A stretch of 64,000 nt of DNA from a virus (UHGV-1380027), one strand, 5' to 3'; counted from the stretch's first letter, positions 1,904 through 16,992 are shown. Notes: generated by a model from the sequence alone, not told the origin. Program-made: numbers and translations.

Positions 1904-4900
1904 TTAAAGAGAGAAAGTCGCGTAGGCTCCCAGACGATACTGCTGGTCACCAGGGAACATAACACCTATAGAGGCTGTCCCTAGAATCCTGCCTTCCTTT
2001 CCAGACTCCATTCTGAACCCTACCCATCCTGAACTCCTTGCAGCCTCGATGTTGTCGCTATACCCGAAAGTGGCAAGATCGTCAACACCAGCCCCAAACA
2101 GCAACTGAAGCTGACTTCTCGGAAGCCCTATAATTTCAGGAATATATGCACCAAAGTACACCATCTGCCCTACCTTAGGACCGCTGCCGTACTCCATCGG
2201 CTTGCTTGTAGCAAAAGTCTTCATACCAGAAGTCCCTGCCGGATTAGGGTATGCCCCGTTTGTTGCTGTACCTATCCACATTCTCCACTGTGGTGTCATC
2301 TGTTTGACAGTAAAAGATGTTGAAGACGTTTTGCGACCTGCATCATCAGTAGCTACAAACTTTATAGTGACATTACCAGGAGCTTTAAATGTTACCAGCC
2401 CTGTGGTAGCATCCACTGTTGCAATGTTGGTATTACTGCTTTCCCAAGTCTTTCTAATCCCAGACACATTGGAAGGGGTAATAGAAGGTTCCTGCATCTG
2501 CAGTTTACCACCCACAATCCCTATGCCGTTACCTGGGTTATACAACGCACCAACTTCATCTATAATGTTACCTGCCTTGAGACTGTACTTCCTTGAGAAG
2601 TTGTAAGTTCCGTTATAAGCGTGTGTCCCTGAGAAGGTGACATCTGCTTTTCCGTAAGAGATGCAAACCAAAGCATACTTCCTGTCAGGCAACGTTTCTC
2701 CAGTCTCTGGGTGAGTTTTACCTACCTGGAACACACTCGGGTCAGTGGAGTCGTGGCTATCACTAACGGAGCTTGGACCACCCATCAGTTGTGACAAGCA
2801 ATTCCTTACCCATGTCCAGTTATTGTCACTGGAGAAGTCTACGGTCAAATCAAACACAACCCACTCATTTGGCTTCCACACAGGTGTTGTGATCAACTTA
2901 CCAACACCCCCACCCTGAAGAGTAGGAGATTGTTCAGTGATCAGGGCAGAGTATGCCAGAGTGCCCAACTGCATAGTCTGGCTTGCTGTCCTCACTACCT
3001 TAGAATCAGCATCTGTGAAGTTGTTGATGATCTGGAATGTGCCATAAGTGTTTTTACAGGTAATTCTGGCGTTCAGTGTGTCAATCTTCCTCACATCTGC
3101 CATAGCAGTGTTAGACACAGAGAAGTCAGAAGCTTTAGCTGAGTTTGCCGCAACAGCAGGATCAACGTTAAGAGTTGCGTTGAACTGACAAGCAGGGGTA
3201 ACCAGCAGCTTGTTATCACCTATTTGCTTCCATGAAACACTTTGAACAGGGAGATTCCATTTAATACCTGAGAAAACTTTAGCAACCCTTGGTCCCAGGG
3301 CTCCAGTCCTGTTGTCTTTACAGCACATGGACATGGTGATCGTTGACGGAGTTGCCTGACCAAACAATTGCTGTGCTTTTACAGAGGACATAGTGTAGAA
3401 ATTGTCCTTAACAAACTCATCAGCCGCTAACGATCCGTCAGATCTCCACCATTGTACCTGGTAGCCTGTCTTATCCCAGCCACCAACCTGCTTCAAGTCC
3501 TCCCAAGAGATTTCCAGATCCCCAGTGGTAGGGTTGATTGCCGCAGTTCCTGGTGTTCCAGATGACCATATTGGGATATCGAACCACGCTGGTTTAACAG
3601 ACTGCACTGCGTTAGGTCCTATTGCAGCAGCAAGTTGTTGACCCATCAATACGCGAGCATCTTTCACCAGGCCCCGCTCAATCATAGATCCAGAGTAACC
3701 CTCTTTCTTATATGCAGAGGACCCGTTCAAATGGATGAGCCTGCTGCAGTCGAAGCCATACGCTCCACCACCATTAGGGTCTGCGAAGTTAGTTATGATT
3801 CTATCCCTAATATTTTTCCATGCCCTACCCCCAATCTCGTAGTCATGGTCATAACATCTTTGCAGCGTTGTCCAGCAAATGATTGCCATTCTTCTGCCAC
3901 CTGTAAACCCGAAAGCGCCGTCATTCAACTCTTTCCACAGGTAGCAGTTAGTTGTCCACATAGCTCTGTGAATGTTGAACCAGTTTATGGACTTGGCTGA
4001 GTTATCCCACTGAGTCCCAGGTAATTCAGGCCACACTGCATTAACCAGCATGTCTTCTGTTCCTGCATCAACCAAGAACCCTCTTACCTTTTTACCCATG
4101 CCTACCCTGTCTTTTGCAATCCAACTGCCAAACAATCTCAGTTTTGGACCGTAAACAACATCTTCCGGATGCTCAAAAGAGACATACTTTAAGTAGATTG
4201 TTGGGTCACCGTAGGTGCCATCACAAACACTTTTGTGCATGTTTTCGCCAAGATCTAGACGAAGCCCTGTCACCACTTTAGACGTGTCAGTGAATTTGTC
4301 TGTTAAATCAAATTCATACCACCACCATCCACCACCAAGCATAAATTTCTTGCATCGAGTATTGTCTGTATCAGATATTCTCTTATCCCCTGCAAAAGGT
4401 GAATCAGCAAACTGATAATGCAGAGCAGTCTCGAATAGATGTGTTGAGGTTCCGTTTTCTGCAAGAACTTGCTTACCTATTAAGTCGCACTTAATGATCA
4501 TCACAACACGTTTGTACCCGTTTGTTACTGGAACTTGCATAGATATGGATGTTCCGTCCATGTTCGATCTTAGTGCTGTCATGATGATATATGGGTCAAC
4601 AGCGTTGCCTAAAGTTTCAGGCCCTGGGATTATCTTGTACTTCTTAACCTGCCCCATGAACCTGTCACTGGCGTAAGTTGCAGCCTCAAAGCAAGATCCT
4701 CCATTAGGCAGTTCGCCAGGACCCCAGAAAAATGCGCCATAACAGTTATAAAACCACTTGTTAGGGTCGTATTTGTTCTTGAAGGTCTGAACCTCGTTAG
4801 CCTGTTTTGTCAAGAAAACCTGCGTATCTGTAAAGATTGCAGGATTTACTCTCGCCTGACGTGGAGGGTACCCTGTCGATTGGTTAAACCACTGATTACA

Positions 4901-7588: not shown

Positions 7589-9334
7589 TTAACGTTGTGC
7601 AATAACCACATCCACAATATCACCAACACCACAATATGTCAATTGTAGCAAGGTGACACTGTTGGCTTTGTTGTTAATAACAGGAGTAGCCGACAGTATG
7701 GCATATTTATCGTGTAAAGTCACGTTGTGGCCTACAGCATCCTGAATGACATAGATGATTGCAGTGAACGGGTAAGGTTTATCTTCAGCCGATGTTCCAG
7801 GCCATTGCCCTATTGTAAAATCCCCTTTCGCGTGGACAACATACATATTGGCCTGCCCGTTAGGTGTCCATGTCCCACTAGATGCGTCAGCCTCCTCTAA
7901 GTCAAACTCCACCTTCCCTGCATGGAAAGCAGGGGCAGTAATAGTTTTACCAGCTTCAATTTCTTGAGAGGTGGTTATCTTGCCACTAGAGTTAATGCCA
8001 TTACAGACAAAGTTGACATTAGAGAAGTCTGGCAGCCACCCAGTCACTGTACCTGATATTTCAAGGTTGTGAAGGTGGGTGGTGCCAGTCCCTGCTGCGT
8101 TTAAACTAACATCTCCATTTACCTGCAAGTTTCTGGTAACGTTGCAGTTTTCAGAGTTTGCAGTTGTTGCAGTTAAAGTGGTGGTTGTCAGCTCGGTAAT
8201 TACACCTTTGTTGGCTGTAAGTCCTTCTCCTTCAAAAGTGGCACGCTCATTCACCCTCAGAGTATTTAAAGATATGTTCTGGACAGATGCTGTGCCACGA
8301 ATGACTATAGATCCTCCAACCTCTAAATCTCCATTGATCAGTGCATCTCCCGTGCTTTCAATATAGCTAGGGTAGATCATGGTGCCATCTACAGAGTAGG
8401 TTATCCCTGTAACGGTGCCTGTCACCTCAAGGTTCTTAACCCTAGTGGTCCCATCAACCTGCAATGTCGGTTCGGTGGCTGCCTTCATGGCATTACCGCG
8501 AATGTACACGTAGTCAAAAAAGTTATTACCTAGACCATCAAAATGCACATCGTTGTTATTAGCCACTGGTTTCCCAGAAGTTATAGTGTCAGCTATAACT
8601 CTGTGAGTTGATACTTCATGAGGTTGCAGCTCTGTGCTCCTCCAGTCTGCATGCTTAGGATCGCTCCACGCAAAAGTCAGTGTAGAAGTATTTGCCGTAA
8701 GGATTAGGTTCCTGAAGCGTGCAGTAGAATCTGCTCCATTAACAGGTCCGTGTAAGGTAAGGGTACCCCCAACTATAGTGTTAGCAAGTTCTGTAAGACC
8801 TTTTACCACCAAAGATCCTACAGTAACTTTCATCCCCTCCATGGCTTTAAATATGCTATCCACATAGTCAACAACAAACTCTGTGTTTGCTATAGACTCG
8901 GACTTATCATCCATTGGAGGTGTAGGTACTCTCGGGTCACCTTCGAACCTTGGGCTGTTAAGTTTTGCGTAGTATTTTGCCATTACTGCAGAGTCGGTGT
9001 ATAATCTCCAGTTCGGAGATTGTGAAGGATCTGCTGGCATCCTAACCGGGTTAGATTTTGACGCTGCTGGAGCGTACCACCACTGAGGGCCTGTATCTCC
9101 TTTAAACTCATACAGCTGGTTAAAAACTGTTGTGGATGCACCATACGCCCAAGGGATCGGTGGCGTTTTAAAATAAAGGTTGTCAAGCATGGCTTTTCGT
9201 ACCGTAGGGATAGTGGTCCCATCCTCTACGACAACTTCATCCACAGCGTTACCGTTGACAACCAAGTGCAAACGTTCAGAATCAACAATTACTTGATCTA
9301 CCGCCTGCTCGAAGCTTGTCATGTCTTGCGCCAT
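7589..9334 (-). CDS. tail fiber/tailspike protein
   Basis: 581 aa, Thr/Gly/Asn-rich repeats typical of beta-helical fibers; co-oriented within the fiber cluster. Confidence 0.45.
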   Translation of the reverse strand: MAQDMTSFEQAVDQVIVDSERLHLVVNGNAVDEVVVEDGTTIPTVRKAMLDNLYFKTPPIPWAYGASTTVFNQLYEFKGDTGPQWWYAPAASKSNPVRMPADPSQSPNWRLYTDSAVMAKYYAKLNSPRFEGDPRVPTPPMDDKSESIANTEFVVDYVDSIFKAMEGMKVTVGSLVVKGLTELANTIVGGTLTLHGPVNGADSTARFRNLILTANTSTLTFAWSDPKHADWRSTELQPHEVSTHRVIADTITSGKPVANNNDVHFDGLGNNFFDYVYIRGNAMKAATEPTLQVDGTTRVKNLEVTGTVTGITYSVDGTMIYPSYIESTGDALINGDLEVGGSIVIRGTASVQNISLNTLRVNERATFEGEGLTANKGVITELTTTTLTATTANSENCNVTRNLQVNGDVSLNAAGTGTTHLHNLEISGTVTGWLPDFSNVNFVCNGINSSGKITTSQEIEAGKTITAPAFHAGKVEFDLEEADASSGTWTPNGQANMYVVHAKGDFTIGQWPGTSAEDKPYPFTAIIYVIQDAVGHNVTLHDKYAILSATPVINNKANSVTLLQLTYCGVGDIVDVVIAQR

Positions 9335-9343
9335 GATTTCTCC

Positions 9344-9610
9344 TTAAGCTTTTTGCTCTTCGTTTTTAACGTGGTCAGGGTGCTGGCAACCCCACCGGAG
9401 CGAGATGAATTTGCTAATAAGCTGGGGGCAGGCTACTGAAGGTGCGTATATCCACGCATACCATTCAGGAAGCGTATCATTGTACCCCATATGAATAAAC
9501 ACCCCAGTCATCACTGCCATGCCTATGTTTGACCATAGCTTAGATTGGGACACTTTCGTAGGGTCATCCGATGCCGCAACCAACCCCCATAAAAACTGAG
9601 TTAATTTCAT
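9344..9610 (-). CDS. small membrane protein (holin-like or exclusion-type)
   Basis: 88 aa with two or three hydrophobic segments (FLWGLVAA, IGMAVMTGVFIHM, WYAWIYAPSVA) and a charged C-terminus; lies directly after a fiber gene. Confidence 0.3.
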   Translation of the reverse strand: MKLTQFLWGLVAASDDPTKVSQSKLWSNIGMAVMTGVFIHMGYNDTLPEWYAWIYAPSVACPQLISKFISLRWGCQHPDHVKNEEQKA

Positions 9611-9619
9611 TTACCCTCT

Positions 9620-10666
9620 TTAAGCATAAGATATAGTGATCCATTGACCGTTTACAAATTTTTGAATGGCACCAGTCCAATAGTCGCCTTGATACGGGTG
9701 TTTATAGGCGTAATTGCCGGAGCACATTACATGCCCAGGGTATACTCTTGATTCTCTGTAGGTGGTTCTGAAACGGTTTGCTATCCTTACATCTTCAACA
9801 CCCCTACTAGGCATAGGAATAGTAAGGTTACCACTGCTATCTGCGCTGCTACCATTTACCCTGCGGACCACGTTTCTCCCACCAACTGTTGCATATTGAC
9901 CCCTGGCGGTGTTATCGTTACAATCCACTCTTCCACCTATTTGAGCGCTGCCGCAGGATTGTTGTCCATTAACAGTGGCTCTTGGTATCGTTACCGCATT
10001 AGCATTTGCAGAGGAGCTTTTTGCATCATTGCATTCAAGATTCCCTTGGATAGCCAGTCTTGCACGGTTGGCAGTTATAGCATTAAGCTTCATAGCCGAA
10101 AACACAGGCTGCCCACCAGAAGGTTGAAATCTCCAACGGAAACCGTCTATTTGGTGAGAAGGATCATCAAGGTCTGTGCCGTCAGCGCCGCCGATGTTGT
10201 CCATAATCCAGAAATCCATCATCGTTTTGTCTGGAGTTATGGTGGTGTATATCGCTGCATTGTCTGTTGACGCGGATGCAAACTCGATTCTTTGAAGACC
10301 CAAAGTTTGAGTCTGGGTCATTGTGTCCCCAGTCTTGTCAACATACAGGTCATCCATTTCTTCAGGCGAGTATACATTGAGGACTTTACGTGCAGCAGCT
10401 TTGTCTGGAACGTCTGCCAGATTATTAGTGACCCTTAAGAATCTATTATCCCATCCAGGGACAACATCTTCTGTTAAATGCTTTAGCCACGCAGAGAGCA
10501 TGTGGAGTTCAAAGTTAACAACTTCACATGCTATCCTTTGTGTCATATCCCAACCTTTCAATCTCTCTTCTTTGTTCGGTTGAGACTTGTTCAACTCTCC
10601 TGTATTTTCAAGCACAACATCCTGATTGGCCCAAATATCGAGAGGGATAACTGGTTTAGTCATCAC
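9620..10666 (-). CDS. tail fiber protein (paralog B)
   Basis: 348 aa; N-terminus (PLDIWANQDVVLENT...) and C-terminus (KFVNGQWITISYA) parallel the 11679-12719 product, centre diverged; C-terminal motif resembles phage P2 gpH-type fiber tips. Confidence 0.5.
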   Translation of the reverse strand: MMTKPVIPLDIWANQDVVLENTGELNKSQPNKEERLKGWDMTQRIACEVVNFELHMLSAWLKHLTEDVVPGWDNRFLRVTNNLADVPDKAAARKVLNVYSPEEMDDLYVDKTGDTMTQTQTLGLQRIEFASASTDNAAIYTTITPDKTMMDFWIMDNIGGADGTDLDDPSHQIDGFRWRFQPSGGQPVFSAMKLNAITANRARLAIQGNLECNDAKSSSANANAVTIPRATVNGQQSCGSAQIGGRVDCNDNTARGQYATVGGRNVVRRVNGSSADSSGNLTIPMPSRGVEDVRIANRFRTTYRESRVYPGHVMCSGNYAYKHPYQGDYWTGAIQKFVNGQWITISYA

Positions 10667-10753
10667 ATTCTCCTGAGAAAATTCCTTAAGGACTATTTTA
10701 ACACTTTAGAGAACAAAATGCAAGAACGGCATCCTTACCGTTCTTACCTTTGT

Positions 10754-11068
10754 TTACCTTTTACTATGCTCTACAAGCATGTGCAAAATCTTTTGTACAT
10801 CAGCTCGGATACCGGAGACATCTGTCCTGACATCTTGCTTAAGGTCGTTAATATCGGCCTCTAGCTTACTTAACCGGGTCTCGATAATGGAATCAAGTCT
10901 ATCTTTTGTAACCATGCTATTTTTCACTAAAATGAGGTCTTTCTCCAGCTCATCCAACCTCTTGGAAATGCCTTTCCATTTGGTGTGCCACTGGTTGAAA
11001 GCCCATACACAGATCGGGACAACGGTACCCATGCAGATACCGTACAATGCCGCCAAATCCAACTCCAC
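10754..11068 (-). CDS. membrane-anchored coiled-coil protein
   Basis: 104 aa: one N-terminal hydrophobic helix (LAALYGICMGTVVPICVWAF) then a heptad-like charged region; function not assignable. Confidence 0.3.
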   Translation of the reverse strand: MELDLAALYGICMGTVVPICVWAFNQWHTKWKGISKRLDELEKDLILVKNSMVTKDRLDSIIETRLSKLEADINDLKQDVRTDVSGIRADVQKILHMLVEHSKR

Positions 11069-11079
11069 AACACCTCCTC

Positions 11080-11664
11080 TTAGAGGGTAGGTCGTTCCGG
11101 GAAGAAAATGTCAGGGGCTTTAGATGTATCTATTTCAAGAAGTTTTACCCTGTACATTTTCAAATCTCTGATGTTGCGTTTTTGGTCATCAGTAAGATCG
11201 TATTCAAGGTCAATCATGTCTTGATAGGCACCAATTCTAGCAGTAGCCCAAGCAAGTTCTGTCTCTATGACACCCTCTGCCTGTTGAACAAAGAATTCAT
11301 TGTCTGTGACAAATTCATCACCAACTAAACGCAAAGCGTCGTGGTGGAGCATAATGTTTTCTGGTACCTCTTCTTTTTTGGCGATAACCACACGAAGACC
11401 TGGAGCAGGCCACAAGGCATCAGGTTCTTCTGTAGATGTCTTAAGAATACCCTTCTCGTCAACAAGTAAGAAGATACAGCCGGGATTTTCTTGTCGCAGT
11501 GTTCGTGATTGCACATACCAATCGCCATCATCATTACGTAAAAAATATCCAGTGTATGCTGTGTAATCCTCAACCTCCTGAGGAGTCAGCTCCTTGGTCT
11601 CCTTGTTGGTGTAGTATTCGCCAGATCCCGGTTGGTAAAGTTTAAACTCTTGAAGTATTTTCAT
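11080..11664 (-). CDS. tail fiber assembly chaperone (Tfa-like)
   Basis: 194 aa directly downstream of a fiber gene; size and C-terminal region (MYRVKLLEIDTSKAPDIFFPERP) consistent with Caudovirales fiber assembly proteins. Confidence 0.45.
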   Translation of the reverse strand: MKILQEFKLYQPGSGEYYTNKETKELTPQEVEDYTAYTGYFLRNDDGDWYVQSRTLRQENPGCIFLLVDEKGILKTSTEEPDALWPAPGLRVVIAKKEEVPENIMLHHDALRLVGDEFVTDNEFFVQQAEGVIETELAWATARIGAYQDMIDLEYDLTDDQKRNIRDLKMYRVKLLEIDTSKAPDIFFPERPTL

Positions 11665-11678
11665 GCTAGTCCTCCGAT

Positions 11679-12719
11679 CTACGCATAATTAACAGTGATC
11701 CATTGACCATTTACAAGTTTTTGTAAAGGTCCTGCCCAGTAGGTTGAACCACGCATCTCTTTTTTATCACCAAAATGCCAACCTGTGACAACGTAGCCGT
11801 TGCGAACTGGAGATTCAGAAACACCATCAACAAGTCTTGCACCGATTCTGATATCCTGTACCCCTGTCTGCGGGATGGTGATCGTTACATCTCCGTTACC
11901 GTTAGCCGTCACTCCATTCACAGAGCGCACCACATTTCTGTTACCGACAACACAATGCTGGCTTCTTACAACCATACTGTCACAACTTGCACCGCCATCA
12001 ACATATACGGACCCAGCTGTCAACTGACTAGCCACATTACAGTTGGTGAATGTTGCTGTGCTGCTGATGGTAAGGTTGTTACACCGCATGTTATCGACAA
12101 CTTCAACATTACCTACCACTTTCAACAGCGCACGGTTAGCCGTGATCGCGTTCAGGTACATCAAAGTGAACTCTGGATTAATGTCTGGCTGAGTTGGCTG
12201 GAATCTCCAACGAAACGCATCTACTGTAGATGTGCCACCATCATCAAACGCCCCAGTGTTATCACTTAACCCAAAGTCGAGAGTTGTCTTATCTGGACCA
12301 ATAGTTGTCTCTATCCAAGCCTTATCTGTCTCGGCAGCTTTAAAGTTGATACGCTGCAAACCTAAGGGGCCTGTCATTGTATCGCCTGTAACTTTTACAT
12401 ACCTGGCGTCTGCCTCTTCCTTAGTGATAATCCCAAGGTTTCTACGGGCAACAGGAATGTTCAAAAGATCGCTCAGGTTATTATCACGTACCAGATAACG
12501 GCCCTCTTGGGCAGGGATCTGCTCGTCAGCAATATATTTTGCCCAAGTCCCGAGCATATTGAAAATATAGTTAAGTTCTTCACATGACGGCTTTTGACCA
12601 AGATCCCAACCTTTTCTCCACAAATCATCAATCGGGCGTAGCCTGTTCTGTCTGTGGGTGTTAGGCAGAACCTGATCCTCCTCTGCCCAAATCTCTAATG
12701 GAAAACTAGGTTTTGACAT
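11679..12719 (-). CDS. tail fiber protein (paralog A)
   Basis: 346 aa; shares N- and C-terminal modules with the 9620-10666 product (C-terminus KLVNGQWITVNYA). Confidence 0.5.
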   Translation of the reverse strand: MSKPSFPLEIWAEEDQVLPNTHRQNRLRPIDDLWRKGWDLGQKPSCEELNYIFNMLGTWAKYIADEQIPAQEGRYLVRDNNLSDLLNIPVARRNLGIITKEEADARYVKVTGDTMTGPLGLQRINFKAAETDKAWIETTIGPDKTTLDFGLSDNTGAFDDGGTSTVDAFRWRFQPTQPDINPEFTLMYLNAITANRALLKVVGNVEVVDNMRCNNLTISSTATFTNCNVASQLTAGSVYVDGGASCDSMVVRSQHCVVGNRNVVRSVNGVTANGNGDVTITIPQTGVQDIRIGARLVDGVSESPVRNGYVVTGWHFGDKKEMRGSTYWAGPLQKLVNGQWITVNYA

Positions 12720-12731
12720 TTTATCTCCTGA

Positions 12732-14804
12732 TTATGAGAAGTCTGGCGGAACAACATCTTCTACATACCCTTTCAGAGCAACCTGCCCCATATGCAGAAC
12801 AGTAGAATCTCTGGCGGTAACAGTGATGCTGTCAGACATTACTTGCGGGTATGCCCACACATACTGTTTTACCTCAGGGTATCTATACTCTATGGTTGCC
12901 ATGTTTCCGCAAATACATCTCCATAAAAATTCTTGGTAATTCCTGGTTGGGTCGTAGCCATATACCGGAGCAAGCTCTTTGCTAGGAACGAACCCTGCAA
13001 GGTATTGTATTTCAGACGGTTTCCAACCTAACTTAACGATAGGTATGTTTACAGACTCTTTTGCCTTTTCAATACCTCCCTGCATCACCCAATCGTAGCA
13101 CTCAGTGCAGAAGAAATCAAGAGCACCTGCTTCCTTTTTATATTGGTCAGCAAGGTTCAGTTTTTGCGTAAGCTCGGTTTCCATAATAGTGGGGAAAAAC
13201 AGTAAAGCTGTCATCTGAGCCGATGCAGCGTGTGCTTTTATTGCCTTTGAAATGGCTGCAATACGAGCGCCAAGCTTACCACGACAAAATGCTACATACT
13301 TGTCATAAACACCGCCAGTTTTAGGATCGTCAATAGTCCCAATGTCTAGTGCATATTCACCAGTCTCATCATAAAACGCCTGCTTTGTAGGGTAGTCATA
13401 AATACAAGGCTTACGAGTATCGGTATTGAACCACCACCACGGTTCACCAATCTGCATAATCACTGGTAGGTTGTTTCTCATAGCGGCTGATGCAAAATTC
13501 TTAAATACTGCAGTAAGGAAATTCATGCCCTCTTCAATGGTTGGAGACAGGAGGTAACTACAAGGCGTATAGCCTGTTTTAGCATAGTTATCGTTCCAGT
13601 CTCTCTGGGTCCATTCCAACGGACAGGCATCGCTATAAAGCTCAAAGCTTACAGACTGCATAACGTCGAAGTCATGTCGTTTGGCATTGTACATAAAATC
13701 ATCATGCCATTTATAAGCTGCAGCGTTTAGAGCTCCTGTTTTGTTTATAGACCATTGGGTTCCTGACCATGTGTAGTCATAATAATGGCTCATACCAACA
13801 TAATGGTTTATGGTTCCTGTATAGCCCAGACGCTTGATATTGCTCAACACCCTTAAAGGGGATACGTTCCACATATCGTCATATGCTGTGCAGATCCCAA
13901 CATCGTGTTCTTTCACCTGAATATTGTTAAGTTGCATCATTTTCCAGCCTGTGTCCGGCTGAAGAAGATCTAGACGCAACTCACACTCTACATTTTCCGT
14001 TCTCGGGTCTGTGCTATTACCTACCCAATCTTTAGGCATAAGTGGTATTAGAATCCTTCTCACCTGCCGAGGATCAACACCCATCATGTTGTTGTTCTGG
14101 TCCATCCCGACGCAGTCCTCGAAATCAATATGAATTTCTGCAACATTCTTATCCTCTGAGATGCTGACAGCATATTGAGCTAAAGGAACATAGATGATTG
14201 TACCATCAACAAGGTCTACAGGCATAATCATCTTTTCAGGGGTGGAGAAGTTGCTGGCATTGGTTATTGACATTCTGAACCAAAGCTTGGTGTTTCTCAT
14301 CTCGTAGTGATCATCAAATCCAATGCCGAAATGGTCATACTTGTCAACTGTTTCCCAAATGCACCCAGCCATGCCCCCATATGTTCTTGACACTAAACGG
14401 TTAATACAGCAGTTATTATCCGCAACAATACAGGTGCTTTCAGTCTGCTGTGTGGTTGTAACCCAGTATCTTGGGTGAAACATTCTCTCCTCAACTGTAT
14501 CCCAAGATATTCTGTCAAGATTCTCATCTGAAACTATTGTACATTTCGCTCTTTGTGTTCCAATCATAACCCCTTGGGAGTTTGATGAAAACTCCATAAA
14601 GAAGCTCCTTGGCAACCTGTTTGGCAATTTGTCAACAATTTCTACAGGGATCTCGATACTGGTTGCCCCAACCGGGATAGTTACATCGCCCTCAACATGA
14701 TCATAATCCCTACCCGGAACTGCAGTATCTTGAACTGTGCGGTAATGAAACCGTGCAGCCATTGTAGAGTAATCACGGTAAGGTTTAAAAACAGCTGTTG
14801 CCAT
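12732..14804 (-). CDS. tail-associated protein, possibly enzymatic
   Basis: 690 aa between baseplate-like genes and fiber genes; Trp/Tyr/Asp-rich sequence suggestive of a carbohydrate-active fold; no specific motif confirmed. Confidence 0.35.
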   Translation of the reverse strand: MATAVFKPYRDYSTMAARFHYRTVQDTAVPGRDYDHVEGDVTIPVGATSIEIPVEIVDKLPNRLPRSFFMEFSSNSQGVMIGTQRAKCTIVSDENLDRISWDTVEERMFHPRYWVTTTQQTESTCIVADNNCCINRLVSRTYGGMAGCIWETVDKYDHFGIGFDDHYEMRNTKLWFRMSITNASNFSTPEKMIMPVDLVDGTIIYVPLAQYAVSISEDKNVAEIHIDFEDCVGMDQNNNMMGVDPRQVRRILIPLMPKDWVGNSTDPRTENVECELRLDLLQPDTGWKMMQLNNIQVKEHDVGICTAYDDMWNVSPLRVLSNIKRLGYTGTINHYVGMSHYYDYTWSGTQWSINKTGALNAAAYKWHDDFMYNAKRHDFDVMQSVSFELYSDACPLEWTQRDWNDNYAKTGYTPCSYLLSPTIEEGMNFLTAVFKNFASAAMRNNLPVIMQIGEPWWWFNTDTRKPCIYDYPTKQAFYDETGEYALDIGTIDDPKTGGVYDKYVAFCRGKLGARIAAISKAIKAHAASAQMTALLFFPTIMETELTQKLNLADQYKKEAGALDFFCTECYDWVMQGGIEKAKESVNIPIVKLGWKPSEIQYLAGFVPSKELAPVYGYDPTRNYQEFLWRCICGNMATIEYRYPEVKQYVWAYPQVMSDSITVTARDSTVLHMGQVALKGYVEDVVPPDFS

Positions 14805-15501: not shown

Positions 15502-16992
15502 TTAAATAGTTTGTTGGAAAGTTATATTACTTTCGTCTAGATCAAACACCTCAGTCATGTTTGCAACAATATCGTTTGTGGTGTAAGCTTCATCAGAGGC
15601 CCCCACAGGTTTGACTTGAATTACAAGTCTGTTAAATCTGCCTATTGACACAGCAGCCGATGCAGCACCAACCAATTGGATATTGTACAACGTATCTGCA
15701 ACATCCAGTCCGTTAACAACCTGCAAAAGAGCCTCTACAATGGCATCTTTTTCTGTTGTGGAAAGCGCAGCACCTGAGTAGGTAATTCTTACATCTAGGC
15801 GGTAGGTATTTGCCTTGGAGTAATAAATCCTTTCAGTCTGACCGTCTGATGTGGTAATATCGTAGAAGATATTCCCATAAGTTCTATTTGTGCAAGCTAT
15901 GGTTTGATACAGCGCCTGACAGATATCCTCTGTTGCACCACCAAACACCACCACTTGAAACTTATAAGGTGGTATACCTTTCGCATCCGTTTTATCGGTG
16001 TTGTTAGAGAACACTCTTACTTTCTCAACACCTTTCACCTCGCTTACAGCGCTAAGGATTGCAGGACGGGTAGCTTTAGATGTCAGCTGTTTAGTGCTGG
16101 AAGCTCTTAAGCGATACTCAGAGTCTTTCTCAACATCCCTGCCCTCATTGAATCTTTCTCGGTTGGTAAGCTTGATAAATCCACTGGGAGTAGGTGACAT
16201 TGTTGTCACGGTTTCTGCCCCTCTTGACAGCTCACCAGCCTCGTTAGCGATAACATCTAGGGTGATAGTTCTTTCCCCTACAATCGGGGATACTCTGAAA
16301 TCTACCCTGCTATTAAGTCCAACTTGATAAAGATTCGAATTGTACCCTATCCACAACGTCCCTGTCAACATATCTATCTGAATTAAATCATCATTCAGCA
16401 GGGTTGTATTATCGACAATGAATTGCTTAATCTCGCCGTAAAAGCTTGGCAAATCAGAAGAGTCCAGAGCCTTATCTGTTAAAACCAGACTTTTTGTTTT
16501 GATACTTCCGTCTGTCTGGTTGGTAATTTGAAAGTTGTATTTCCCAATTCTTAGGTCTGGAGCGTTTATTCTGTGAGCAATAAGATTTCCCGCCACCTGC
16601 ACATCGTTGCTAAGAACAAAGTTGCCACTGTCCAGCGTATAAGTTTTGGAATCATAAATCATATTGTACGGCACAGTTGTGTTGATTGTCAACTGGCAGG
16701 TACCTGATGATTTAGAACGGCCTCTTCGGTAAATACCCTGTCTTCCAAGAAGCTCATCTAGGTAAATACCTTCTGCCCCGTACAGCGTCTGCGATGCGTA
16801 TACAGATGCTGCCATAAGAATAAGTTGATACTCTCGCTCGTTGAAGATAGTGGTCAGCTTATCTGCAACGGAGTTACTCTGTACGTTGAAGTTTTCGCCA
16901 AAAGCACGGATCAGGCTTTGCTTAGTTTCAACGATTAGGTCATTTAGGGTTGGTATAACGAAACCAGCCTCTGTCAATCCATACTTAGCCAC
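15502..16992 (-). CDS. baseplate J-like protein
   Basis: 496 aa; N-terminal region (YGAEGIYLDELLGRQGIYRRGRSKSSGTCQLT) resembles baseplate J / T4 gp6-family wedge proteins; gene order. Confidence 0.4.
   Translation of the reverse strand: MAKYGLTEAGFVIPTLNDLIVETKQSLIRAFGENFNVQSNSVADKLTTIFNEREYQLILMAASVYASQTLYGAEGIYLDELLGRQGIYRRGRSKSSGTCQLTINTTVPYNMIYDSKTYTLDSGNFVLSNDVQVAGNLIAHRINAPDLRIGKYNFQITNQTDGSIKTKSLVLTDKALDSSDLPSFYGEIKQFIVDNTTLLNDDLIQIDMLTGTLWIGYNSNLYQVGLNSRVDFRVSPIVGERTITLDVIANEAGELSRGAETVTTMSPTPSGFIKLTNRERFNEGRDVEKDSEYRLRASSTKQLTSKATRPAILSAVSEVKGVEKVRVFSNNTDKTDAKGIPPYKFQVVVFGGATEDICQALYQTIACTNRTYGNIFYDITTSDGQTERIYYSKANTYRLDVRITYSGAALSTTEKDAIVEALLQVVNGLDVADTLYNIQLVGAASAAVSIGRFNRLVIQVKPVGASDEAYTTNDIVANMTEVFDLDESNITFQQTI

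Follow-up and report, generated by a model that had tools for sequence, protein, structure and literature searches.

The window, by which we mean the whole 64-kb stretch of DNA that was analysed, belongs to a Vequintavirus, an rV5-like myophage of E. coli, and at this locus it is 99.8% identical to Escherichia phage vB_EcoM-ECP26. The DNA of the locus is 94-99.8% identical to 114 Vequintavirus records (with at least 80% of 3.5 kb covered), and its gene order matches that of the BASEL phage WalterGehring, FV3, JES2013, Murica and others. Every ORF between positions 7589 and 16992 falls into a family of fibre, chaperone, membrane or baseplate proteins (main features in Table 1). Two of the genes encode tail fibres, named A and B here, and the order in the window and in rV5 is fibre A, tail fibre assembly chaperone (Tfa), a 104-aa membrane protein, fibre B and an 88-aa membrane protein; the arrangement of A and B is identical in about 115 genomes. 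The sole baseplate wedge homolog of the locus lies three genes upstream of fibre A, and a 690-aa N4-gp65-like protein is encoded between the small baseplate protein and fibre A.

Table 1. Genes, protein regions and putative expression signals at the fibre locus (positions in the window).
Feature	Position	Strand	Basis
Baseplate wedge protein, phi92 gp145 homolog	15502..16992	-	32% identity over the full length, E 2e-68
Short tail fibre paralog A, 346 aa, rV5 gp33 ortholog	11679..12719	-	ORF; phrog_4465 'tail fiber protein', E 1e-170, end to end
N-terminal putative baseplate-docking adaptor of A, ~aa 1-80	12480..12719	-	Match to phiTE short tail fibre
C-terminal Mu gpS-like distal tip of A, ~aa 286-346	11682..11864	-	Match to 5YVQ
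Tfa (tail fibre assembly chaperone) of 194 aa, ortholog of rV5 gp32 and phi92 gp148	11080..11664	-	Caudo_TAP, phrog_136
Single-pass membrane, coiled-coil-like protein, 104 aa (rV5 gp31)	10754..11068	-	phrog_5345, E 1e-48
Terminator-like hairpin between gp31 and B, 12-pair stem then T-rich run	10720..10747	-	Consensus match only
Late-promoter-like motif TGTTAAAATA, ~30 nt upstream of B	10694..10703	-	Same as predicted rV5 late promoter P030
Short tail fibre paralog B, 347 aa from ATG, rV5 gp30 ortholog	9620..10663	-	ORF; phrog_4465, E 2e-163, end to end
N-terminal adaptor of B, ~aa 1-82	10418..10663	-	Match to phiTE short tail fibre residues 1-82, E 3e-8
C-terminal tip of B, ~aa 289-347	9623..9799	-	Alignment to the tip of A
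Membrane protein downstream of B, 88 aa (rV5 gp29)	9344..9610	-	phrog_1322 'membrane protein', E 3e-32

An earlier note on this DNA had described A and B as paralogous tail fibre genes, and this was borne out: both are minus-strand ORFs, and their products align by BLASTP over the full length with 153/356 identities (43%, E 1e-94), well above what chance would give. Fibre A is found with at least 95% amino acid identity in 116 phage records, and its orthologs in BASEL phages are annotated 'short tail fiber protein'. Fibre B, with at least 95% identity in 115 records, is intact in every genome examined. Its most likely start is the ATG at 10663, since an AGGAG lies 6 nt upstream of this codon and only 3 nt from an alternative GTG at 10666, which would give 348 aa (ORF 9620-10666); the 347-aa form is also annotated in rV5, FV3 and others. 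Pfam and NCBIfam hold no family covering either fibre, and both were named by PHROGs only.

By sequence, A and B are the short tail fibre paralogs gp33 and gp30 of the rV5 type, accompanied by one chaperone, gp32. The rV5 genes have the same order and encode fibres of the same sizes (346 and 347 aa), with a published paralog identity of 42.3% against 43% in the window; the window shows no substantive difference from the rV5-group genes, only a few residues being variable. The pair is a system known since 2013 and no new kind, and its paralogy is already in print (Kropinski et al. 2013, PMC3606486; Maffei 2021, PMC8594841). With descriptions of the same pair dating from 2013 and 2021, the finding is genuine but unremarkable; the details added here are the ancestral status of A, the promoter-like motif and altered adaptor of B, the strong constraint on both genes and a tip exchange in a relative.

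Pairwise alignment and structure prediction had been proposed as checks on the paralogy, and the alignment upheld it over the full length. The N-terminal motifs (FPLEIWAEED in A, IPLDIWANQD in B) and the C-terminal motifs (QKLVNGQWITVNYA and QKFVNGQWITISYA) pointed out earlier are present in the proteins, but the picture of shared ends around a divergent centre had to be given up. Similarity is continuous, ranging from 27% to 63% identity per 30-aa window over the whole length, and the best-conserved block is the central one (aligned positions 106-150, 60-63%), while the weakest stretches are 46-90, 211-255 and 301-345, the last 14 residues excepted. Five indels of 1-6 residues fall in the shaft and tip. 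The tip of B aligns to that of A throughout, with a length change of at most one residue, and outside the last 14 residues the two tips are about 30-33% identical. A mosaic origin of the pair by module swap within the window phage was rejected on the strength of this continuous similarity. The DNA of A and B is about 49% identical, with a longest exact aligned run of 15 nt, and what the genes have in common at this level is one 63-nt direct repeat at their 3' ends (76% identity).

A profile of the fibre family matches the N-terminus of the phiTE short tail fibre (E 2.4e-27) and two regions of Mu gpS, residues 150-259 and the tip at 438-503 (domain E 8.7e-8). Taken alone, fibre A aligns over its residues 1-108 with the phiTE short tail fibre (PDB 9CUY) at residues 1-111 (E 1.6e-18), and its tip aligns with residues 440-501 of Mu tail fibre protein S (5YVQ; whole-sequence E 1.5e-6). 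The sequence of fibre B alone gave no match to Mu gpS among solved structures. In the first 125 aa the B-clade adaptor keeps 24 of the 50 family-conserved columns, and 10 of the 50 have been lost in all four B-clade members, which come from two lineages, the RPIDDLW motif being among the losses; where A has RPIDDLW, B reads QPNKEER. Given a tip with no gpS match and an adaptor from which 10 family-conserved residues are missing, B might dock or fold differently from A. AlphaFold2 monomer models made from a 28-sequence alignment had a mean pLDDT of 64.5 (A) and 59.6 (B) and were poor, as expected for chains of an obligate trimer. In a Foldseek search of the A model against the PDB the phiTE N-terminus was recovered (51% identity over 67 columns, probability 1.0); beyond it all matches had E >0.6 and lent no structural support.

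In phiTE, residues 3-92 of the short tail fibre form a globular joint on the wedge (PMC11972413); the N-termini of both A and B are homologous to these residues. The homology of the phiTE (Certrevirus) fibre to A and B is clear over its N-terminal ~80 residues, and its extreme C-terminus is also related, but unlike A and B it is a single-copy protein, 554 aa in length, that contains Ig-like domains and a long coiled coil, in a flagellotropic phage. Six short tail fibre trimers are present in phiTE (24 chains in two entries).

Closer in gene order is phi92 (Justusliebigvirus), where wedge, small baseplate protein, fibre and Tfa come in the same order as in the window, apart from the 690-aa protein that the window has before fibre A, with homologous wedge and Tfa, and synteny at the wedge-fibre locus extends to GAP31. 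The phi92 fibre, gp147, is homologous to A at both of its termini (47% identity across 38% of A) but is present in one copy and has a different shaft, and its adaptor lacks IDDLW, as in the B clade. It corresponds to fibre III, which was fitted pointing downward at the bottom of the gp145 C-terminal domain; its predicted trimer is Mu- and Milano-like and its proposed role is stable adsorption (PMC13450770). By analogy, the gp145-like wedge protein of the window would be the docking partner of the short tail fibres.

The ligand of Mu is a glucose of the LPS core (PMC8594841). Homology to Mu gpS at profile level covers the central block and the distal tip, and the N-terminal attachment region of gpS is unrelated to that of A and B. 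Mu gpU (TfaMu) belongs to the same Caudo_TAP family as the window Tfa, which lies as a cognate chaperone directly downstream of A, not of B. Mu tips alternate by inversion, whereas A and B are fixed, co-oriented, probably expressed in parallel and accompanied by only one chaperone. T4 gp12 is a functional analogue, since it too is a trimer on the baseplate whose binding to the LPS core makes adsorption irreversible; T4 has a single short tail fibre gene, whose allelic variation tracks Kdo or HepI targeting. The chaperone that folds the T4 fibre is gp57A, not a Tfa. Similarity of gp30 and gp33 to gp12 was found with HHpred by Kropinski et al. (PMC3606486); searches of A, B and the family profile against solved structures gave no sequence match to gp12.

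As to the virion itself, cryo-EM maps of the Vequintaviruses Bas49 and Bas54 contain three fibre densities near the baseplate, one of which is a short tail fibre with a Mu-like tip, at a resolution (7-9.5 Å) too coarse to separate the paralogs (PMC12143355). Maps at this resolution are EMD-51868 and EMD-51869. The main text of the rV5 paper counts gp30, gp32 and gp33 as detected in the virion; its Table S5 (mass spectrometry, 19 proteins), searched by peptide string and protein length, holds no gp30, gp32 or gp33 peptide (PMC3606486).

The statement that a chaperone follows the first fibre only was correct: the Tfa ORF downstream of A matches Pfam Caudo_TAP (residues 121-192, E 1e-11) and phrog_136 (E 1e-36), and the ORF after B and the other ORF between the fibres encode small membrane proteins. 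Of the 'duplicated receptor-binding cassette' that the note had envisaged, the duplication of the fibre gene stands; the chaperone was not part of it. Tfa is 31% identical to phi92 gp148 (E 9e-27), and a single-sequence search of solved structures found no significant match to it. In Tfa proteins a variable N-domain binds the fibre tip and a conserved C-domain trimerises (PMC9608196). Since the tips of A and B are equal in length and their C-terminal ends almost identical, the one Tfa probably serves B too. Table S3 of the rV5 paper lists gp31 as 'membrane protein, 1 TMD' (PMC3606486), and homologs follow Tfa in GAP31 (34% identity, E 5e-23) and in L003, a metagenomic relative, making gp31 a conserved companion of the chaperone. 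The position of gp29 is taken by a longer, 117-aa relative in L003 and, by annotation only, by an 89-aa membrane protein in GAP31. These neighbours have dN/dS values of 0.034 (Tfa, with 3 of its 194 residues variable in ten genomes), 0.035 (gp31) and 0.008 (gp29).

The duplication itself is, as read from the genes, real and old, since the DNA of the copies is only about 49% identical and a lineage with an A fibre of just 73% identity contributes an ortholog to the A clade and another to the B clade. Fibre A is the positional ortholog of the lone short tail fibre of phi92 (gp147) and of the Seunavirus GAP31, and like these it lies directly upstream of the chaperone. Single-copy relatives have the order wedge, baseplate protein, fibre, Tfa and small membrane proteins; B sits between two small membrane protein homologs, and GAP31 has no fibre gene between these. 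Because its place holds no fibre gene in single-copy relatives, comparison of gene order identifies B as the derived copy and A as the ancestral one. Identity to the single-copy relatives is 42-49% for A versus 33-41% for B. Both fibres are under strong purifying selection, with a dN/dS of 0.023 for A and 0.056 for B. Across ten genomes A has 9 variable positions and B 20, and the tips are nearly invariant, one residue being variable in that of A and two in that of B. A decaying duplicate was rejected for B on the basis of this dN/dS and of the intact gene in all genomes examined.

The reading that we favour, with slightly better than even confidence, is a short tail fibre module with an old duplicate and one Tfa that provides two fixed core-binding specificities or binding modes. 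A would be the ancestral short tail fibre and B, two genes downstream, an old duplicate of the fibre gene alone that carries its own late-promoter-like motif. Both would form homotrimeric fibres on one plan, with a globular N-terminal joint that would insert into the baseplate wedge, then a shaft, and at the far end a small tip like that of Mu gpS, which would bind a sugar of the LPS core. Contact by the tip would make adsorption irreversible after the lateral fibres have found their glycan, and the single Tfa would fold and trimerise the tip of A. The most likely benefit would be a virion with two fixed specificities or modes, and not a variable or switchable one, because the tips differ from each other while within the genus each of them hardly varies.

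Different ligands for A and B would follow from such a reading, and dual receptor specificity, as suggested in the earlier note, is plausible from the low identity between the tips combined with their near invariance within each fibre. It had already been proposed by Kropinski et al. 2013 (PMC3606486), and the idea of two LPS chemotypes for two fibres is found in earlier publications (PMC3606486, PMC8594841). The rV5-like phage LL12 depends on glucose I in the outer core of the LPS (PMC7229145), and none of the BASEL Vequintavirinae succeeds on waaC or waaG mutants (PMC8594841). The glucose I required by LL12 and the BASEL Vequintavirinae is waaG-dependent, an indirect sign that the tips may bind a core sugar, and since this single LPS requirement accounts for the phenotype, a second specificity is unneeded on K-12. 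A literature search for receptors of the Vequintavirus short tail fibres turned up only the assignment of the NGR glycan to the deacetylase fibre; neither gp30 nor gp33 was covered. Few broad-host-range E. coli phages are isolated as often as those of the rV5 type, which are used against O157:H7 and other pathogens, and for predicting host range and engineering phages it is important to know which fibre contacts the LPS core irreversibly.

The same fibres could instead bind one conserved LPS core element from two positions, each docking at a site of its own on the baseplate or on a further fibre, so that the virion would carry more short fibres and gain avidity with no broadening of specificity. 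The substitutions of the B clade at 10 of the 50 family-conserved adaptor positions would be in keeping with a docking surface unlike that of A, alleles of either fibre do not vary in any meaningful way within the genus (see also PMC8594841), and the L003 paralogs, with nearly one tip (88% identity), indicate that two fibres with one tip type are viable. We nevertheless consider this unlikely, as the tips of the window phage have diverged to about 30-33% identity outside their last 14 residues, the Bas49 and Bas54 maps contain one short tail fibre among their three densities, and only one wedge homolog is present in the locus.

The one short tail fibre density in Bas49 and Bas54 would fit B as a conditional or accessory copy. 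Only A would then be constitutive and B made from its own promoter in different amounts, giving a mixed population of virions; B would either be sub-stoichiometric, through competition for the same six sites, or be needed only on other hosts. The homology of both adaptors to one joint of phiTE, a phage with six short tail fibre trimers, suits this scheme, and so does the position of B after a terminator-like hairpin and behind its own late-promoter-like motif. The sequence of this motif is that of P030 in rV5 Table S4 (PMC3606486), and the pattern TG[GT]TAAAATA occurs five times on the minus strand of the window versus 0.34 expected. The low dN/dS of B and its presence in every genome examined argue that it is in regular use, and we regard an accessory role as quite improbable.

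Mixed A and B trimers, assembled with the help of the single chaperone, would explain why one chaperone accompanies two fibres of similar length that have the last 14 residues and blocks of the shaft in common. They are very doubtful: five indels and 43% identity would be hard to fit into a threefold-symmetric fibre, the genes are seemingly transcribed separately, and single-copy relatives build functional fibres from one gene.

In Mu, inversion of the G segment selects between the tips S and S', each paired with its own chaperone, U or U'. The fibre tip is homologous to that of gpS, from this naturally invertible system, and the pair had been put forward as a substrate for fibre switching, which would mean programmed or frequent recombination swapping the receptor-binding ends as with Mu Gin or P1 Cin; we give this hardly any credence, since the genes are co-oriented and both intact in the same arrangement in about 115 genomes, no invertible segment is present, and DNA identity is about 49%, with no exact run above 15 nt and a lone imperfect direct repeat. 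Our search found no inverted repeats flanking either gene or tip, only four weak pairs (14-19 nt, 78-86%) that do not surround a tip.

What does exist, judging from sequence comparison, is one trace of A/B exchange on an evolutionary timescale, in the metagenomic lineage of L003. Over its last 58 residues the B fibre of this lineage has 88% identity to the same part of A, against about 40% elsewhere, so that its tip has become homogenised with the A tip. This would count in favour of switching, but the exchange is old, with the DNA 73-80% identical. Together with the loss of near-invariant adaptor residues, RPIDDLW included, in the four B-clade sequences, which makes a second docking site for B possible, it raises a tentative idea to which we assign a low probability: B would dock at a site of its own, giving the virion two rings of short fibres with different tips, and occasional gene conversion would exchange the tips. 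If true, gene conversion would act as a slow, in-genome reset of secondary-receptor specificity.

Over 9300-12800, a 3.5-kb stretch, the window shares 99.8% identity with Escherichia phage vB_EcoM-ECP26 and 94-98% with more than 110 further records, nearly all from Vequintavirus (rV5-like myophages). Sixteen GenBank records named "Campylobacter phage" (MG0656xx; stated host Campylobacter jejuni) are ~95% identical to this locus of an E. coli Vequintavirus, and are probably mislabelled or contaminant genomes. In phage WalterGehring (BASEL) the same stretch is annotated as short tail fiber protein, tail fiber chaperone, hypothetical protein, short tail fiber protein and hypothetical protein, in that order, with genes for lateral tail fibres and the baseplate on its flanks. 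We refer to the two fibres as A and B and to the chaperone as Tfa. The 88-aa gene is intact in the window; in ECP26, the nearest relative (~3045-3310 of the extracted locus), it carries a 1-nt indel and is unannotated.

Features of the short tail fibre locus and its surroundings in the window
Feature	Position	Strand	rV5 counterpart (rV5 Table S3)
Fibre A	11679-12719	minus	gp33
Adaptor of A (counterpart of B adaptor)	12480-12719	minus	
Tfa chaperone	11080-11664	minus	gp32
104-aa membrane protein, one transmembrane domain	10754-11068	minus	gp31
Terminator-like hairpin	10720-10747		
Fibre B	9620-10663	minus	gp30
Adaptor of B	10418-10663	minus	
88-aa membrane protein	9344-9610	minus	gp29
Lateral fibre, 690 aa	12732-14804		
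Homolog of phi92 gp145 (baseplate wedge)	15502-16992		
TG[GT]TAAAATA copies	10694, 17025, 22529, 36795, 40320	minus	

Both fibre ORFs are present and both carry the terminal motifs quoted in the earlier note. Since BLASTP aligns A and B across their full length (43% identity, E 1e-94) and both match phrog_4465 end to end, their paralogy is real. The centres had been described as divergent between shared termini, which is not so: the best A/B block is central (aligned positions 106-150), and similarity is not limited to the ends. Identity per 30-residue window ranges from 27% to 63%, being weakest at 46-90, 211-255 and 301-345 (the last 14 residues excepted). The second ORF stands, though probably not at 348 aa, as the likeliest start is the ATG at 10663, with AGGAG 6 nt upstream, giving the 347 aa annotated in relatives. 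Apart from the divergent centre and a proposed fibre switching, the earlier reading is largely correct and the feature is real. Kropinski et al. 2013 found rV5 gp30 and gp33 to be close in size, with 42.3% identity, and HHpred showed both to be gp12-like (PMC3606486); from this account and that of Maffei et al., the paralog pair was already known, main interpretation included. The pair is a usual feature of this phage group and has been published before. The rV5 main text counts gp30, gp32 and gp33 among the proteins detected by proteomics, and the supplementary MS table (Additional file 5, 19 proteins) holds no peptide or entry for these three (PMC3606486).

The duplication is old. A and B share ~49% DNA identity, with a longest exact aligned run of 15 nt, and their sole notable DNA repeat is 63 nt at the 3' ends (76% identical). 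A metagenomic relative (L003) has its own two fibres at 116-1156 (first, A) and 2190-3254 (second, B); its A fibre is 73% identical to that of the window and its order is the same (fibre, Tfa, 104-aa protein, fibre, small membrane protein). Neighbour-joining places the A clade as sister to the B clade, with an L003 ortholog inside each, and the duplication is therefore older than the split between L003 and the window. Single-copy relatives resemble A (42-49%) more closely than B (33-41%). The genes of GAP31 (Seunavirus) run from the wedge through baseplate protein, fibre, Tfa, 104-aa protein, 157-aa membrane protein and 89-aa membrane protein to the next fibre, and those of phi92 run wedge, gp146, gp147, Tfa, gp149. 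From this similarity and these gene orders, A is the positional ortholog and B the inserted copy. As had been observed, a recognisable chaperone follows the first fibre only (Caudo_TAP E 1e-11; phrog_136 E 1e-36); what had been called a duplicated cassette was a duplication of the fibre alone, without its chaperone. The gp31-type protein, single-pass, coiled-coil-like and matching phrog_5345 (function unknown), follows Tfa in Vequintavirus, the L003 lineage and GAP31 (34% identity, E 5e-23), and is a conserved yet unexplained component of the short tail fibre module.

Over a set of ten Vequintavirus genomes the fibres have dN/dS values of 0.023 (A) and 0.056 (B); the values are 0.034 in Tfa, 0.035 in gp31 and 0.008 in gp29, so that the last gene is very strongly constrained. 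In the same set A is variable at 9 positions out of 346 and B at 20 out of 347, with near-invariant tips, and each fibre is found at no less than 95% protein identity in ~115 records. Judged from these sequences, neither fibre gene is in decay or serves as a variable host-range locus, in agreement with Maffei et al. 2021 (PMC8594841).

We compared the adaptors, the N-terminal baseplate-docking regions, at 50 columns in the first 125 residues, each at least 85% conserved across all non-B homologs. In all four B-clade sequences 24 of the 50 are kept and 10 are lost, including P19, R28, I30 and W34, turning LPN..RPIDDLW into LEN..QPxKExR. RPIDDLW sits in the wedge-docking joint, and B may therefore present a different docking surface from A. 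IDDLW is absent from phi92 gp147 too, so wedge docking tolerates its loss. At the other end, the L003 B fibre shares 88% identity with L003 A over the last 58 residues (DNA 73-80%), vs ~40% protein and ~50% DNA identity in the remainder, and this tip is 60% identical to the window's A tip vs 36% to its B tip. The pattern indicates that the paralogs of the L003 lineage once exchanged tips or underwent gene conversion. An unrelated 532-aa fibre (P0031) has A-type tips as well; over evolutionary time, then, the tip acts as a module that can be exchanged. The literature examined held no mention of the B-clade adaptor change or the L003 tip exchange. A modest question is how a single baseplate accommodates both fibres, given their related adaptors.

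A profile search against solved structures matched three segments of the fibre family: residues 1-78 to the phiTE short tail fibre N-terminus (PDB 9CUY; E 2.4e-27), a central block to Mu gpS residues 150-259, and the last ~65 residues to the Mu gpS distal tip (438-503; E 8.7e-8). As single sequences against solved structures, both fibres matched phiTE (A, E 1.6e-18; B, E 3e-8), and the Mu tip was matched by A (whole-sequence E 1.5e-6) and not by B. AlphaFold monomer models of both were of low confidence and yielded nothing further than the N-terminal match. The sole homolog in phi92, gp147, is fibre III (PMC13450770), and the window also encodes homologs of its wedge gp145 (32% identity, E 2e-68) and chaperone gp148 (E 9e-27). 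Cryo-EM of the Vequintaviruses Bas49 and Bas54, at 7-9.5 A, shows density for a short tail fibre that has a Mu-like tip, and is too coarse to tell the paralogs apart (PMC12143355).

We propose that A and B would both form short tail fibres, each a trimer fixed to the wedge by its N-terminal joint, and that their small Mu-type tips would bind the LPS core and lead to irreversible adsorption. In an earlier step, NGR glycan would be recognised by the lateral fibre with its N4-gp65-like domain; this N4 gp65-related protein has, besides Calx-beta, the "non-contractile tail sheath" N-terminal and TIM-barrel domains (Pfam E 7e-80), and is the lateral fibre for which NGR glycan binding is reported in Vequintavirus. 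The last 86 codons of its gene have a dN/dS of 1.4, from very few changes. Receptor genetics fit LPS-core binding by the short fibre tips: LL12 requires outer-core glucose I (PMC7229145), and waaC and waaG mutants resist all BASEL Vequintavirinae (PMC8594841). Tfa would fold the A tip and, because the tips are equal in length with nearly identical C-terminal ends, we infer that it also serves B.

As for the benefit of the pair, we lean slightly towards two fixed specificities, or two binding modes, as the likeliest. That both fibres bind the same ligand at two positions is possible but unlikely, and we give rather little weight to B being a conditional or sub-stoichiometric copy. A/B heterotrimers seem very improbable. 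Fibre switching is hardly credible, because A and B are co-oriented, lack flanking inverted repeats, have almost no DNA identity in common and keep one arrangement in every genome examined.

The hairpin lies after gp31, and TGTTAAAATA, at 10694, ~30 nt upstream of B, has the sequence of the putative rV5 late promoter P030 (rV5 Table S4, PMC3606486). It belongs to the motif TG[GT]TAAAATA, which agrees with the consensus of putative rV5 late promoters (rV5 Table S4) and has five copies on the window's minus strand vs 0.34 expected by chance. On these sequence motifs, B probably heads a late transcription unit of its own. Near 54 kb of the window GC skew flips from negative to positive, which is consistent with a changed transcription direction.
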